Source: an uncultured Acidobacteriota bacterium (GTDB taxonomy: Bacteria > Acidobacteriota > Terriglobia > UBA7540). Taken from it: a stretch of DNA of 64,000 bases. Positions 13,289-62,408 of the stretch are shown piece after piece. The notes under the pieces are model-generated. The model did not search any database, was not told the DNA's origin, and was given only the letters and a program-made list of their open reading frames with translations. Numbering within the stretch: the stretch's first letter is position 1; every line of letters begins with the position of its first letter. Both the position numbers and the translations under genes were made by a program. Where the stretch lies: NCBI GenBank assembly GCA_963804995.1, contig CAWDSK010000003.1, positions 320,001-384,000 on the forward strand, written 5' to 3'.

Positions 13289-13358
13289 CCCCCTCACCCG
13301 TCCCGCCCCGGCTGATGAAAACGCCGGCGGCGGTCCACCCTCTCCCCTCGGAGAGGGC
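13289..13358. repeat. Family C palindromic repeat (CCCCTCACCC...CCCTCTCCCCTCGGAGAGGG)
   Basis: Near-identical 70-bp copies at 35154-35222, 46133-46202 and 63101-63173; variants at 8572-8642, 51023-51062, 51118-51218 and around the IS. Confidence 0.9.
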
Positions 13359-13434
13359 TATGATTTCAATTTCTATCCCGAACAACAGGTCCGCGCTACT
13401 TGCTTTTGTGGTGAGATAATGGCTGGGGGTAAAG

Positions 13435-24825: not shown

Positions 24826-25464
24826 ATGAGCTTGGAAGAAGAAACAGGACGCGGGACATTGACGCACGCCTCGGGATGCGCAGGATCTTCCGGCGAAATA
24901 TCGATTGTGCGGTTGCAGGTGTTCACGCTGATCTGGATGGTGGTGGAGTGCGCCCTTGCCCTCTTTTCTGCAAGGCGCGCACGGAGCCCTGTGCTTTTGG
25001 CCTTTGGCGCCGATAGTCTCATCGAACTCTTGTCGGCGCTCGTGGTGCTTCTACAGTTTGTCCCACGCCTTGCTTTGAGCACCGCTCGGGCCGGGAGGCT
25101 CGCGGGCATCCTTCTCTTCCTGCTCGCTGCGGTCATCACTATGAGTTCTGCCTTCGCGCTGTGGCAGCATGTGCGGCCCGATACAAGTTGGATCGGCATA
25201 GGCGTTACCATTGCCGCGGTCGTGGTCATGCCCGCGCTGAGTTCGGCGAAGCGAAGAGCCGGGAAAACAGCTCGCAATGCTGCGTTGACTGCCGACGCGG
25301 TGCAGTCAGCGACCTGTGCTTACCTTGCCGGCATAACCCTTGCCGGCTTGGTCCTCAATGCGGTGCTTCATATCCGCTGGATAGACCCCGCCGCCGCGCT
25401 GGTTGCGGTTCCAGTCATCTGCCTTGAGGGGAAGAAAGCATTGCAGGGCGAGGAGTGTTGTTAG
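24826..25464 (+). CDS. Cation efflux (CDF) family membrane protein, TM domain only
   Basis: AFGADSLIELLS, ALTADA..S..C, WIDPAAAL. Confidence 0.8.
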   Translation: MSLEEETGRGTLTHASGCAGSSGEISIVRLQVFTLIWMVVECALALFSARRARSPVLLAFGADSLIELLSALVVLLQFVPRLALSTARAGRLAGILLFLLAAVITMSSAFALWQHVRPDTSWIGIGVTIAAVVVMPALSSAKRRAGKTARNAALTADAVQSATCAYLAGITLAGLVLNAVLHIRWIDPAAALVAVPVICLEGKKALQGEECC

Positions 25465-25512
25465 TTGGGATACCTCGCCAAGTCGAGATACTCCCATCGA
25501 GCAAGCGTAGCG

Positions 25513-27425
25513 GTTGCGGTAGGGATACCGGTTACCCGGTACCCCCCGCACGGATCCGTACGTGCGCTGGTTAGCGCATACGGCTCTTATCTCGGATGTG
25601 TGGCGGCGAACCGTTGGGATGGCCAAGGATGCACAACGTGCGGAGCAGGCAACCAGCAGGCCGCAAGCTTCCCCAGTCGGTCCCAGTTGAGGCGGTGGCG
25701 TTGACTGCGTTGACGCAGTTGTGTTCGCCACAGTCGGGTCAACCGTTCCCGAAAGATTCGCAGGCGGTCGAGGTTTCCCGGTACCGCGTGATAGTTGAAG
25801 TAGCCTTGCACGACCGACCGGAGCCATTTACCCGTATCCGCGATGGGATCGTGCCGACGCTGCCGGAGTTGTTGCTTGAGTTCCTGCAACTTCCCCCGCA
25901 GGCGCTTGCTGATCGTCTTCCGCTTCACGGTAAATTGCCCCCTCCGGTTCTTCCCGCTGATATGCGTGAAGCCCAGAAAGTCGAACGTCTCCGGCTTACC
26001 TTCTCCTCTCCGTTTCCGGTAAAGTTCGGCAAACGGCCCGAACTCGATCCGGCGCGTTTTGTCAGGATGCAGTTCCAATCCAAACTTCCCCACCCGCTCC
26101 CGGAAATCCTCCAGAAAGCGGTCGGCTTCCGTCTGCGATTGGAATCCAAGGACCGTATCGTCGGCATACCGCACCACGACCACGTCTCCCCGGGCGTGCT
26201 TCTTGCGCCACGCCTGCACCCACAGGTCAAAGACGTAGTGCAGATAGATATTCGCCAGCAGGGGCGAGACCACCGCCCCTTGTGGCGTACCCATCTCCGT
26301 CTCCGACCATTCGCCTTCCTCCCTCACCCCGGCTTTCAGCCATTTCTGGATGAGCCGGAGAATCCGGGGGTCGGCGACGCGATGCTGCACGAACTTGAGC
26401 ATCCATTCGTGGGATATCGAATCGAAAAATCCACGAATGTCCGCGTCAAGAACGTAGTTCACGTGCTTCACCGTGAGCGCGTACGAGAGCGCGTCCAGCG
26501 CTTGATGCTGGCTGCATCCCGGTCGAAAGCCATACGAGAAGCCCAGAAAGTCTTCCTCGTAAATCGCCTTGAGGATGGTGACCACGGCCTGTTGGACGAT
26601 CTTGTCCTCCAGTGCCGCAACCCCCAACGGACGTTGCCGCCCGTCGCCTTTCGGGATATACGCCCTTCGCGAGGGCTTCGCTCGGAATGCTCCGCGGTGG
26701 ACCCGGCTGTGCAGATCGACGAGTCGACCTTCCAGCCCGCTTTCATACTCCTGCCACGTCATGCCGTCTACTCCCGGTGCAGCTTTTCGCTTCAAGGCGT
26801 AAAAGCTTTCCCGCAGCAGATCGACCGTTAAGTGGTGGAGCAAGGCCGTGAACTTCATCTCCCTGTGTTCCTTCGCGGCTTTCCGCACACCCGCGAGTCC
26901 CTGGGACACGCGTGCCCCGCTCTGTGTCGGGTGCGTGTTAGGCCAACGGGTGTTCTCCTTGATCAGCGGCCTTCCCTCCTCATTCTCCGCCAACGGCTTC
27001 CCGTCTTTGTTCAAATGATTCATCGGTACTGTTCCGCTGTCCGACTCCTCGAAAGCGTGCAGGCGGGCTGTACGGCCATCGCCTTTTCCCGCCGTCCGGC
27101 CACGATCTACGGCGGCCGGCGCCTCCGAGGTCTCCCGGTTCTCGTGCAGAAAGTGTCTAGGCGTGTCTGGGGTCTACGACTACGCAGGACTGTGCCGGAA
27201 CTCGCGTTGGCGTCCCGGCCTCATGTTGCCTTCCGTTTAGTCTGAAAACGTCGGCGTCCTGATTGGACATTTTCGAAGCTCAATACCCAGCCCACCTATT
27301 CCCCTGTTTACGCTTCACCGTGCGCCTCACGACGCCCAGCGCAAAACTCGGGGCCGAGTGGATCGCTGCTCCTTCCTCGTGAGAAATTTTCATTCTCTGC
27401 TTTCTGCCGGTTTATCCCGGCGCAC
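25513..27425 (-). mobile_element. Complete group II intron (1913 nt), inserted in a family A REP
   Basis: Minus-strand 5' end GTGCG at 27425; domain V GAGCCGTATGCG...CGCACGTACGGATC (AGC triad) right after the ORF; domain VI GGGGGGTACCGG...CCGGTATCCCTACCGCAAC ending AC at 25513. Confidence 0.92.
25587..27023 (-). CDS. ltrA: Group II intron reverse transcriptase/maturase, no endonuclease domain
   Basis: APGVDG, RPLG, SYGFRPG, DADIRGFFD, GTPQG, RYADD, FDFLGF, X domain GYFNYH. Confidence 0.96.
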   Translation of the reverse strand: MNHLNKDGKPLAENEEGRPLIKENTRWPNTHPTQSGARVSQGLAGVRKAAKEHREMKFTALLHHLTVDLLRESFYALKRKAAPGVDGMTWQEYESGLEGRLVDLHSRVHRGAFRAKPSRRAYIPKGDGRQRPLGVAALEDKIVQQAVVTILKAIYEEDFLGFSYGFRPGCSQHQALDALSYALTVKHVNYVLDADIRGFFDSISHEWMLKFVQHRVADPRILRLIQKWLKAGVREEGEWSETEMGTPQGAVVSPLLANIYLHYVFDLWVQAWRKKHARGDVVVVRYADDTVLGFQSQTEADRFLEDFRERVGKFGLELHPDKTRRIEFGPFAELYRKRRGEGKPETFDFLGFTHISGKNRRGQFTVKRKTISKRLRGKLQELKQQLRQRRHDPIADTGKWLRSVVQGYFNYHAVPGNLDRLRIFRERLTRLWRTQLRQRSQRHRLNWDRLGKLAACWLPAPHVVHPWPSQRFAATHPR

Positions 27426-27583
27426 CGGACCTCCGTCTCTGAGGTCCGCGGTTCTTCCTGCAACATTTGAGCGAATGTATCGTGGCGAAGCAGCCATCGG
27501 GCTTAGCCGCCCGCGTCGGAGATTTGTGGATTCCCCTATAGAAGAACCGCGGACCCCAAAACCGGGGGACCGCGCTACGCTTA
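27426..27583. repeat. Remainder of the family A REPIN split by the intron (left tip at 25501-25512)
   Basis: CGGACCTCCGTCTCTGAGGTCCGCGGTTCTTC ... GAAGAACCGCGGACCCCAAAACCGGGGGACCGCGCTAC; spacer matches 61690-61760 reversed. Confidence 0.9.
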
Positions 27584-27974
27584 CTGCTGCTTATGTTGAC
27601 CACATTTTTGGTATGACCTGACCATATGCTTGACTTGCGTTCCAAGGCACTGCCAGAGGGAAGCAGGTAGCAGAGTGTATGCCTTTCACACTCTGCGGTC
27701 CTTAATCTGATAAACATGCACTGTATTATTAACACACCAAAAGACAGGTAACAGGGAATAGGGAACAGGGAAAAGAAGAGGTCATAAAAGACGGTGACCA
27801 GTGACGAGTGGCGAGCAAGAAAGTCAAGAGGGGGGCACGCCCGACGAAGGAAGAACCGCCCCGATGCATCGGGGCGCTACACCTCCTGGCTGAGCTCTGG
27901 CCCCGGGCGTGTCCCCAAGTCACGTGCGTCTCAAGAAGACCTTCCCACCCCTTATTTATTCTAACCAAGGTATG

Positions 27975-28361
27975 CTAAAAAAACACGGCAGGTGAAACGT
28001 GGAATCGTTTGCTCAATTTCTCGATGTGGGTTTTGTTGAGGTGGCGTTTCTTGTGCAAAATTTCGGAGACGATGCTTTCAGAGCCGAAGATGGGGACGAG
28101 GTCTTTTTGGCGGAGATCATTGGCCTCCATCAACGCGCGAAGAACCTCTACCGGGGAGGCGTCAGGAATGGAATGATGCTCTTCCTCGTACGCTTCAATC
28201 AAAGTCATCAAGACTTCGGCATACTTCTCTTCATCACTCGCGGGATTAGCTTTGCTGGTTAGCTTGTCCAAGACCGAGAGGTATTCCTCATGCTGCCGCT
28301 CAGAGGTAATCGGGGTGGGCGAGCTGACTTCGAGGGCATATTTTTCAGATACTGCAATCAT
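27975..28361 (-). CDS. HigA-like HTH antitoxin
   Basis: LIEAYEEEH, SPVEVLRALME, LRQKDLVPIFGSESIVSEIL; ATG overlaps the toxin-remnant stop (ATGA). Confidence 0.85.
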   Translation of the reverse strand: MIAVSEKYALEVSSPTPITSERQHEEYLSVLDKLTSKANPASDEEKYAEVLMTLIEAYEEEHHSIPDASPVEVLRALMEANDLRQKDLVPIFGSESIVSEILHKKRHLNKTHIEKLSKRFHVSPAVFF

Positions 28362-28440
28362 GACTTTTGCCACTCCTTCTCGTCGTATTCACCGTGATCG
28401 AGAATGTGTCGGATGTAAACCATTCTCCATATGCGAAGTT
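28358..28440 (-). pseudogene. 3' remnant of a HigB-type toxin
   Basis: MVYIRHILDHGEYDEKEWQKS-stop, matching the HigB C-terminus (IRxILTHxEYD); N-terminal part absent. Confidence 0.7.
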
Positions 28441-28631
28441 CGTGTCAAGCCCAAATTCCGCTTCTGAGCACCAGCAAGCCAGTTTCTTAATTCAAAATTT
28501 AGAATTCAGAATTCATAACTCAGAACTCATAACTTAGAATTCCAGCTTCACAGTTCCCCATCGCGTCACAATCGCGCATATAATACCCGGCTCGGATTCT
28601 GGCAAGTACGACAATTGGAGGAGACGCATTC

Positions 28632-29381
28632 ATGTATAAGCTGGTGTTATTGCGGCACGGAGAAAGCATTTGGAACAAGGAGAACCTCTTTACCGGCTGG
28701 ACGGACGTGGGGCTGAGCGAAAAGGGCCTGCAGGAAGCGGTGGACGGTGGCCGCCAGCTTCGCAAAGACGGCTTCGTTTTCGATGTGGCGTACACGTCGG
28801 TGTTGAAGCGCGCCATCAAGACGCTGTGGGTGGCGCTCGAAGAAATGGACCAGATGTATATTCCCATCCACAACACCTGGCGGCTGAACGAGCGCCATTA
28901 CGGAGCGTTGCAGGGACTGAACAAAGCTCAGACCGCTGAGAAGTACGGTGAGGCGCAGGTAAAGATCTGGCGGCGCAGTTACGACATCCAGCCGCCCGCG
29001 CTTACGCCTGACGACGATCGCTATCCCGGCAAAGATCCTCGCTATGCCGGATTGACGCAGCAGGAATTGCCGCTCACCGAGTGCCTGAAAGACACGGTGG
29101 CGCGCACCCTGCCCTACTGGCATGAAACCATCGCGCCGGTGGTGCGCTCCGGCAAGCGCGTCATCATCGCTGCACATGGCAATAGCTTGCGCGGGCTCGT
29201 CAAATATCTGGATAACGTTTCGGAAGCGGAGATTGTGGGATTGAATATCCCTACGGGGATTCCACTGGTCTACGAACTGGACGATGAGTTGAAGCCGCTG
29301 CGGCACTATTATCTGGGCGATCCTGAGGCCGTAGCGCGCGCCGCGCAGGCCGTCGCCGACCAGGCAAAGCGCAAAAATTAA
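28632..29381 (+). CDS. gpmA: 2,3-bisphosphoglycerate-dependent phosphoglycerate mutase
   Basis: [33 protein letters not shown]. Confidence 0.97.
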
Positions 29382-34950: not shown

Positions 34951-35384
34951 TGGGTCGCCACCGTGTCGCCACGGCTGAGAGTCCGCCGATCCTAATGGCG
35001 GACGACCGGTTCGGAGTGTGGGTTTTTCTCTGGGTGTGGAGGGATTGCCTACGCAAATGGAAGTAGCGCAGCGTGGTCGAGCCGCAACCAAACTAGAAAG
35101 GGTCTGCCAGTTCCGTAGTTGGGTCCGGGTCTGGTCTTCAGATGGTGAAATAACCCCTCACCCGTCCCGCCCCGGCTGATGAAAACGCCGGCTGCGGTCC
35201 ACCCTCTCCCCTCGGAGAGGGCTATGAGTTCGTATGGGTGCGGCAGGCACCAGCAAGTGGCGCGGACTTGTTTCGTAGGTCTGACGCGCTACACTCGCTG
35301 GCGTTCCGAGCGCCAAGGATGTAAAGTTCCCGCGCATTGAAACGCAAGCGGCGGGTGCAATCCTTCCCATAAGGTGAGACAGAA

Positions 35385-42880: not shown

Positions 42881-42967
42881 CCTACGGGCCCCAATATTCT
42901 ATCCGCAGACCGGTGAAACCACCCCCTGGAACACAGCAATCCTTCGTCCCCCTCGGATTCGGTAGAC

Positions 42968-43012
42968 GAAGAACCGCAGACCCCAACGACGGGGGGTCTG
43001 CGCTACGCTTGC
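42968..43012. repeat. Degenerate family A REP
   Basis: GAAGAACCGCAGACCCCAACGACGGGGGGTCTGCGCTACGCTTGC. Confidence 0.75.
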
Positions 43013-61611: not shown

Positions 61612-61650
61612 AGGTCATTTTTCTTGTCGCCATAACCCCATATGTCCGTA

Positions 61651-62379
61651 GCAAGCGTAGCGCGGTCCCCCGGTTTTGGGGTCCGCGGTCCTTGGCGTGC
61701 AAAAACCGGAAATCTCAAACACTGCTTTGCCACGATACGTTCGCTCATATGGCGCATGAAGAACCGCGGACCTCAACGGCGGAGGTCCGCGCACATTGCT
61801 TCCACTTACTGGTCATATATGTGAGTAGGCGCCGCAGGGAACGTAGCGCGGTCCCCCGGTTTTGGGGTCCGCGGCTCTTCGTTTGAAAACACTGAAACTC
61901 TCAATTGCGGGCGACTTCTTCCCCACCACACATTCGCTCTCATGGCACATGAAGAACCGCGGACCTCAACTGCGGAGGTCCGCGCTACATTTGCTTCCAC
62001 TTACTGGTCATATATATGAGTAGGCGCCGCAGGGAACGTAGCGCGGTCCCCCGGTTTTGGGGTCCGCGGCTCTTCGTTTGAAAACACTGAAACTCTCAAT
62101 TGCGGGCGGCATCTTCCCCACCATACTTTCGCTCTCATGGCGCATGAAGAACCGCGGACCTCAACTGCGGAGGTCCGCGCTACATTTGCTTCCACTTACT
62201 GGTCATATATATGAGTAGGCGCCGCAGGGAACGTAGCGCGGTCCCCCGGTTTTGGGGTCCGCGGCTCTTACTTTGAAAATACTGAAACTCTCAATTGCGG
62301 GCGGCATCTTCCCCACCATACTTTCGCTCTCATGGCGCATGAAGAACCGCGGACCTCAACTGCGGAGGTCCGCGCTACA
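61651..62379. repeat. Tandem array of four family A REPIN units, 195-bp period (BIME-like)
   Basis: Units at 61651-61805 (diverged), 61806-62000, 62001-62195 and 62196-62379; each has GTAGCGCGGTCCCCCGGTTTTGGGGTCCGCGG and CCGCGGACCTCAAC.GCGGAGGTCCGCGC. Confidence 0.93.
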
Positions 62380-62408
62380 CTTACTCTTGAAGGCAAGGAT
62401 GCGGGGCT

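Follow-up and report, generated by a model that had tools for sequence, protein, structure and literature searches.

The locus described here raises the question of how a group II intron came to lie exactly within a repetitive extragenic palindromic (REP) hairpin, and whether such hairpins are found by base pairing or by their fold. The intron occupies the minus strand of a stretch of 64,000 nucleotides (positions 320,001 to 384,000 of contig CAWDSK010000003.1, assembly GCA_963804995.1; hereafter the window) from an uncultured Acidobacteriota bacterium. We consider it probable (roughly 0.68) that this is an intact class E intron in a recent retrohoming burst, with its homing site in REP hairpins associated with REP-associated tyrosine transposases (RAYTs). 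What can be read directly from the sequences is a fixed insertion point, the pairing of exon-binding sites EBS1 and EBS3 with intron-binding sites IBS1 and IBS3, a preference for REPs of the EBS1-matching variant, and a strand bias.

Copies of the intron and choice of the REP site

An initial sequence-only reading of the window had stated that removal of positions 25513-27425 regenerates a REP, and the exact intron boundaries bear this out, with the 5′ end GTGCG at 27425 and the 3′ end ...CCCTACCGCAAC at 25513 of the minus strand. Excision restores a GTAG-tagged hairpin; together with the REP at 27541-27583 it makes up an inverted dimer whose tags are on the outside. It was found that the 7.55-Mb genome holds 40 copies of the intron that are >99.6% identical (38 of full length and 2 cut at contig ends), and that all readable junctions, the 5′ exon in 38 copies and the 3′ exon in 39, lie at one point of a REP hairpin. 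Within this hairpin, the loop contains IBS2 and the 3′ arm of the 10-bp stem contains IBS1, with the cut two pairs up from the foot of the stem. The 3′ exon starts with CGC(C/T)A in 39/39 readable copies, position +1 being C at 39/39 sites; exon positions −5, −4, −3 and −1 are invariant among 37 tabulated copies; and 36/36 fully scorable sites have the 5′ hairpin arm with no more than one mismatch in 8. EBS1, EBS2 and EBS3 are identical across the 39 copies that have a 5′ end. The flanks diverge within a few bases of the junction, are unique in nearly all 40 copies, and cover both variants at −2 as well as the two REP subfamilies that hold introns, one CGCTAC-tailed (GTAG on the other strand) and one CGCCAG-tailed (CTGG). 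A one-off insertion is therefore ruled out by 40 copies at one position of the same REP family.

The repeats are multicopy short palindromes with a tetranucleotide at the 5′ foot, as expected of REPs, although CTGG departs from the canonical GTAG/GTGG tags. The number of empty hairpin sites counted in the genome was 350. There were 14 Y1_Tnp matches, and all three that were tested passed NF047646, the model for REP-associated tyrosine transposases. Two of these RAYT genes (C5:58.4 kb and C6:722.5 kb) are each flanked by a filled REP and, on the opposite side, by empty ones, and no such REPs were found within 1.2 kb of the third. Neither the REPs of the window nor those at the loci of 8 relatives had an Rfam match at gathering score, and they are therefore not a listed RNA family.

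The pairing of intron and exons was evaluated with 79 related loci, 22 of which are without a 5′ end; after identical domain I sequences were collapsed, 48 rows were used for covariation and 45 for pairing shuffles. As the sequence-only reading had proposed, EBS1 is CAGACU (27244-27239), displayed in a CGTTT/AAACG stem: these nucleotides, 182-187 of the intron, covary one to one with exon −1 to −6, each position being 94-100% paired. All six EBS1-IBS1 pairs can form in 41/45 relatives (21 different EBS1s), whereas 2,000 shuffles gave 5.2 on average and 13 at most. The best column for exon +1 was G249, which was 98% paired, and a weaker cross-species covariation was found between nt 157-160 and exon positions of about −9 to −13.

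CAGACU is fully complementary to GGTCTG, with 6/6 pairs at 34/38 sites (T at −2), whereas the window copy belongs to the 4 at sites of the C(−2) variant. The 5/6 pairing that had been noted thus holds for the window site, but the main target is GGTCTG. For T at −2 there are 34 filled and 127 empty REPs, and for C at −2 there are 4 filled and 114 empty (p=1e-5), the 5/6 (C) variant being about as common as GGTCTG among the empty REPs; the GGACCG variant has 0 filled and 109 empty in the genome.

The orientation of the copies was compared with GC skew. On six contigs that have one dominant skew sign, the sense strand of 28/29 copies is the G-rich one, conventionally taken as the lagging-strand template. 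The T variant has 24 filled and 29 empty sites on the G-rich strand versus 1 and 70 on the other, so that introns occupy 24/53 (about 45%) of the sites of the best variant on this favoured strand; empty C-variant REPs are evenly divided between strands (44 vs 46). When local skew was used over all contigs, 34/40 copies were on the favoured strand. We infer that the favoured strand is the lagging-strand template. The window itself had been said to hold empty targets after 61982, 62177 and 62372, in an array at 61.65-62.38 kb matching the REP at 27541-27583 and its spacer. All three uninterrupted sites (GAGGTCCG followed by CGCTAC) exist, and the minus-strand REPs of the array match that partner REP, with spacers that are similar by eye; however, the sites are of the weaker 5/6 variant and on the strand rarely used on this contig. 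The strand bias explains the emptiness of the plus-strand sites of the window.

Class of the intron and its relatives

The intron has the GUGYG 5′ end, the AY 3′ end and domains I, V and VI, and the Rfam family RF02005 matches its domain I at 170 bits. The open reading frame (ORF) for the reverse transcriptase (RT)/maturase sits in domain IV with YADD intact, and the 478-aa protein scored 342 bits with TIGR04416, the group II RT/maturase model (cut-off 300). An endonuclease domain was not found in this protein, its sole Pfam match being RVT_1.

The protein is 57% identical to that of a frameshifted intron on Sinorhizobium meliloti pRmeGR4b and 30-35% identical to class C, D, F/g3 and g1 references. 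Papers are cited here by PMC number, and statements about them refer to the portions of text at hand. A disrupted class E intron, S.me.I4, is carried on pRmeGR4b (PMC5894124), and the frameshifted intron is taken to be S.me.I4 on the basis of replicon and disruption. In a quick tree without bootstrap, in which the class E call rests on this one reference, the two form a clade with SH-aLRT (approximate likelihood-ratio test) support of 100, and the other pRmeGR4b intron groups with class D. RF02005 also matches the pRmeGR4b intron, whereas four class D references match RF01999, the class C reference RF02001/RF01998, and a class F reference RF02003. By these comparisons the intron is a class E, endonuclease-less intron and not class C, in line with the earlier statement that it was a non-IIC, endonuclease-less intron with an AGC triad and a full-length domain V. 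Class C is ruled out by the AGC triad, the 34-nt domain V, the 6-bp IBS1, the tree and Rfam; the class C traits of a CGC triad, a short domain V, a 3-4 nt IBS1 and insertion after the stem-loop are absent.

Class D was considered because of a conflicting published entry. An ORF of B. phymatum that is 58% identical to this intron-encoded protein lies at coordinates given as class D in Table S1 of PMC3552965, yet it groups with the class E reference and matches RF02005, and another fragment, located at 384 kb of the same plasmid, falls in class D. Class D was thus rejected, and the table entry probably reflects a mix-up. No class labels were found in the supplement of PMC4028801.

The sister genome G001, of the same genus and 90% identical in DNA, has the EBS1 CGGACU, and 6/6 of its copies are at C(−2) sites of the same REP family, where the empty pattern matches number 66 C and 68 T. 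The EBS1/variant preferences of the two genomes are reciprocal (p=3e-5), with the reservation that two of the six G001 copies share one 5′ flank. At 5/6 filled G001 sites (L119, L121, L123, L125 and L126) position −4 is mismatched to EBS1, which weakens the stem as well, and 66 sites that match the pattern perfectly are empty; these weakened filled stems hint that a stable stem hinders insertion. Related introns are also present in these REPs in G004 (one readable 5′ end) and G028 (2/3 copies), and one G028 copy sits without a hairpin. In the G063 lineage the insertion point is not inside a stem but 6-7 nt past a different hairpin; at the 19 sites of this lineage, the hairpin is clear at 14, imperfect at 1 and absent within 70 nt at 4. 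On these small numbers the relatives lean toward recognition of flanking sequence over recognition of a hairpin.

The 79 related loci are nearly all from Acidobacteriota and are 63-93% identical, and only the closest sit in this REP. Most of the relatives at 73-78% identity sit in other repeats. A shared dyad-like element of ~30 bp (TTGGCG-NAAN-ATCGCCAT-TACA-CTCAT) holds 41 loci (L005-L078), with 29 introns on one of its strands and 12 on the opposite one. The element, which resembles a tyrosine-recombinase (Xer/dif-like) site, has two symmetric cut positions, one per strand, and the introns that use them differ in EBS1. Other loci are found within an AT-rich repeat, a different hairpin family or a further intron. 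It seems that the clade switches among multicopy repeats via EBS1 change, REP use being one outcome. The proposal that a family of REP dimers (REPINs) serves as the homing niche therefore needs to be restated: REPs are the niche, but as single hairpins of two subfamilies rather than as REPIN dimers as such, and although all copies in this genome are in REPs, REP use is confined to a small sub-lineage of the clade.

Several observations were made on these sub-lineages. In G063 there are three full-length and about 19 ORF-less relatives (about 647 nt) with nearly all the same EBS1 (L174, L177, L181, L184, L188, L191, L193, L196, L199 and L204-L214), whose insertion point, at the foot of hairpins of another family, follows GGGTGGGAGAC(C/T)A; the ORF-less introns are probably mobilised in trans. 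A sister sub-lineage (L003, L004, L011, L018, L149, L158 and L175) is in an AT-rich repeated motif (..ATGTTGNTGAAAAGAAAG..), and 5′ stubs of such introns are found in this genome at C2:652257 and C1:206552. The sub-lineage of L145, L148 and L217 has the EBS1 UGGCUA and inserts after GGGTAGCCA, with a stub here at C5:460087. At L039:406-455, a relative is apparently inside domain I of another group II intron.

Mechanism, rival explanations and known systems

The mechanism is most likely the standard endonuclease-less retrohoming of RmInt1 with an unusual, self-renewing target. In the best reading, the target is recognized by EBS1, EBS3 and a weak EBS2, plus an additional recognition of the flanks, so that the REP hairpin is picked out mainly by RNA-DNA base pairing. 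The intron would splice out together with its maturase, and the ribonucleoprotein (RNP) would encounter a REP while it is single-stranded in the lagging-strand template. Since the 5′ arm of the REP matches EBS1, this arm must be displaced for EBS1 to pair with the 3′ arm, after which the intron RNA would reverse-splice two base pairs above the foot of the stem and the RT would prime from the nascent lagging strand, as in RmInt1. Because pairing alone is not enough, the protein probably reads flanking REP bases too, such as A−15/A−14 and +2 to +5. The hairpin would be mostly incidental or an obstacle, as the hairpin-less G028 and G063 sites and the G063 insertion beyond the stem suggest, and REPs offer hundreds of mostly intergenic sites in both orientations.

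Several points weigh against this interpretation. Outside REPs, 157 sites match EBS1, EBS2 and EBS3 and 0 are filled, compared to 28 filled and 84 empty in REPs, and therefore pairing alone is insufficient for specificity; 26 of the 157 are outside long ORFs, so that selection explains only part of the difference. The EBS2 match was not significantly enriched in filled versus empty REPs (p=0.09), and EBS2 was dropped as a selector among REPs. The additional reading of sequence and a reading of the hairpin make the same predictions in this genome, the hairpin-less G028 flanks may stem from recombination between copies, and the 40 copies are not independent events. The lagging-template assignment is softened by a weak GC skew with no origin located, and 11 copies on C1, C2 and C9 were excluded from the clean strand test. 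Finally, no spliced, circular or empty-allele joint was found among those listed from four runs, which is uninformative either way: the runs are assembled contigs of mixed communities, mostly of relatives at 90-95% identity.

It is possible, but we think improbable, that homing is assisted by structure, the RNP needing the REP stem-loop, with EBS2 docking in the loop as a toehold and EBS1 invading the stem. IBS2 and A−15/A−14 would be displayed in the 7-8 nt loop, and this would amount to hairpin recognition outside class C with a different geometry, the cut being inside the stem. The stem at 36/36 scorable sites and the 0/157 filled matches outside REPs agree with this possibility, as do DNA folds that place the loop at −15/−16 to −9 with IBS2 within it, the C at −10 in 36/37 sites and A at −15 in 35/37, and a CC at −19/−18 that is commoner in filled T sites than in favoured empty ones (p=0.04 and 0.009, uncorrected). 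However, the same bases are conserved in empty REPs and may be features of the family, related introns use unstructured sites or other distances from stems, weakened stems are over-used in G001 (5/6), and EBS2 is without a role in IIE/IIF splicing in vitro in the text of PMC3753933. The broader proposal that a class E intron gained structure-assisted homing independently of class C, parasitising the RAYT-REP system and disabling it as each insertion parts a GTAG tag from its hairpin, while the RAYT renews sites and EBS1 tracks REP variants between species, is a little more doubtful still.

Much less credible is an entry of the intron into a REP once or a few times, followed by spread of the intron-REP unit by RAYT transposase, gene conversion or recombination. 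RAYT genes are present, two of them adjoining an intron-filled REP, and variants are mosaic among the copies, as conversion would give; but this is largely refuted by flanks that differ from site to site, by two REP subfamilies and by both −2 variants, and the EBS1-match and strand biases are what retrohoming predicts. The insertion also leaves the GTAG tag and the hairpin apart, and RAYT recognition should suffer from this, judging from the text at hand of PMC6006769. The least credible explanation, which we regard as very improbable, is a copy number inflated by long-read assembly error. Four contig ends are in or beside copies, two tandem pairs are at contig ends, and shared variants recombine freely among copies, but nearly all flanks are unique and the same targeting is found in independent genomes.

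The class E introns S.me.I4 and Cl.be.I2 (PMC3753933, PMC5894124) are of the same RT clade and the Rfam D1D4-6 ribozyme family, and likewise are endonuclease-less and have EBS1 and EBS3 with a weak EBS2, whereas the text at hand mentions neither a REP target nor a burst of 40 copies for class E. The domain V loop described for class E has 5 nt (PMC3753933), versus what folds here as an AACC loop of 4 nt with a closing U-A pair (6 nt if that pair opens). RmInt1 and RmInt2 of S. meliloti (class D, IIB3; PMC4615759, PMC5894124) are also endonuclease-less and home by base pairing into a multicopy, non-essential repeat with lagging-template bias; their target site spans −20 to +5 with flanking bases read by the protein, and RmInt2 uses both inverted repeats of ISRm17, so that one target is always on the favoured strand. 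They differ in class (33-35% identity), in having insertion sequences rather than RAYT-associated REP hairpins as targets, and in being present in 7-10 copies compared to 40 here. Class C introns at terminators or attC (PMC4424553, PMC7923331) share the lack of endonuclease, intergenic location, DNA stem-loop and lagging-template bias, but have a CGC triad, a 3-4 bp IBS1, no EBS2 and insertion after the stem, in contrast to the AGC triad, the 6-bp IBS1 inside the 3′ arm of the stem, and the ~31-34% identity to the class C reference of this intron.

REPs are likewise a repeated, harmless insertion site for ISPpu9, ISPpu10, ISPa11 and ISPsy8, which are DNA transposons (PMC1525189). A P. putida group II intron, the class of which is not given in the text at hand, has 2/9 copies associated with REPs (PMC1525189), whereas every readable junction here is in a REP. 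Among the papers listed in a search of the open literature, no non-IIC intron homing into REPs was found, in keeping with the earlier statement that no such case was known, and the P. putida table row is the nearest. A 2015 review lists three target specificities of bacterial group II introns, namely homing sites, terminators and attC (PMC4424553). The present intron is a clear example of the first kind, its homing site being a host REP family and its copies numerous, and such use of a REP as a harmless landing site was not found described for class E in the text at hand. One genome provides a natural selection experiment in the form of filled and empty sites by variant and strand, the 24/53 filled sites give a direct view of the approach to saturation, and the sister species differ by a reciprocal one-base change in the guide. 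Therefore, this is a good system for class E mobility, a class for which only in vitro splicing data were found, and for the question of whether an intron outside class IIC is aided or impeded by a DNA hairpin.

Features of the window and minor observations

Table 1. Coordinates of the intron, its parts and the REPs in the window.
Feature	Position	Strand	Basis or remark
Group II intron, class E, 1,913 nt	25513..27425	-	GTGCG...AAC ends; Rfam RF02005, 170 bits; genomic copies
RT/maturase, intron-encoded, 478 aa	25587..27023	-	ORF; RVT_1 in Pfam; TIGR04416
EBS1 CAGACU, intron nt 182-187	27239..27244	-	Pairs with exon −1 to −6; covariation
Probable short EBS2 UGUC, nt 157-160	27266..27269	-	Partner exon −9 to −12, in REP loop
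EBS3 G249	27177..27177	-	Pairs with first 3′-exon base (C)
Domain V, 34 nt, AGC triad, CG bulge	25553..25586	-	Loop of 4 nt, U-A closing pair
Domain VI with candidate bulged branch A, plus 3′ end	25513..25552	-	Fold only
GTAG tag and first stem bases of split REP (3′ exon)	25507..25512	+	CGCTAC on intron strand
Body of split REP hairpin (5′ exon)	27426..27457	+	IBS1 27426-27431, GGTCCG on intron strand
Partner REP, inverted, GGACCG variant	27541..27583	+	Two EBS1 mismatches
Empty REP, preferred GGTCTG variant (6/6)	42967..43006	+	Site after 43000; strand disfavoured on contig
Array of alternating REPs	61650..62382		Three empty 5/6 plus-strand sites after 61982, 62177, 62372

Neither neighbour of the split REP is disrupted by the intron. 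One is a cation-efflux-family membrane protein (24826-25464, plus strand) that ends 43 nt before the REP, and the other is a 132-aa ORF without a Pfam match (27975-28373, minus strand), which we take to resemble a helix-turn-helix antitoxin. When 25300-28700 was scanned for promoters and terminators, the matches did not exceed chance. At 13358-13403 (plus strand) and 35254-35299 (minus strand) there are degenerate REP tails that lack a full hairpin.

An alpha-prime at the tip of a DId3 stem-loop is a trait of class E. By eye, a CGC(T/C)A loop that lies 3′ of EBS1 may pair with (T/C)AGCG at intron nt 58-62; this candidate alpha pairing is complete in L003, L018 and L025, and 3-4 of 5 pairs are present in this intron. 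Recurring variants at intron nt 58, 373, 732, 858, 910, 1657 and 1704 are mosaic among the 40 copies, because of either gene conversion between copies or polishing noise, and the nt 58 variant likely falls in the alpha loop.

At least three other RT families are present in this genome (6, 3 and 1 copies), and their likely 5′ flanks are not REPs. They are located at C6:295-297 kb, C1:26.5 kb, C5:1087 and 1126 kb, and C4:161.7 kb; at C1:98 and 290 kb and C3:1126.6 kb; and at C9:154.7 kb. One of these families groups with class F/g3, and in the first family one copy lies directly behind another.
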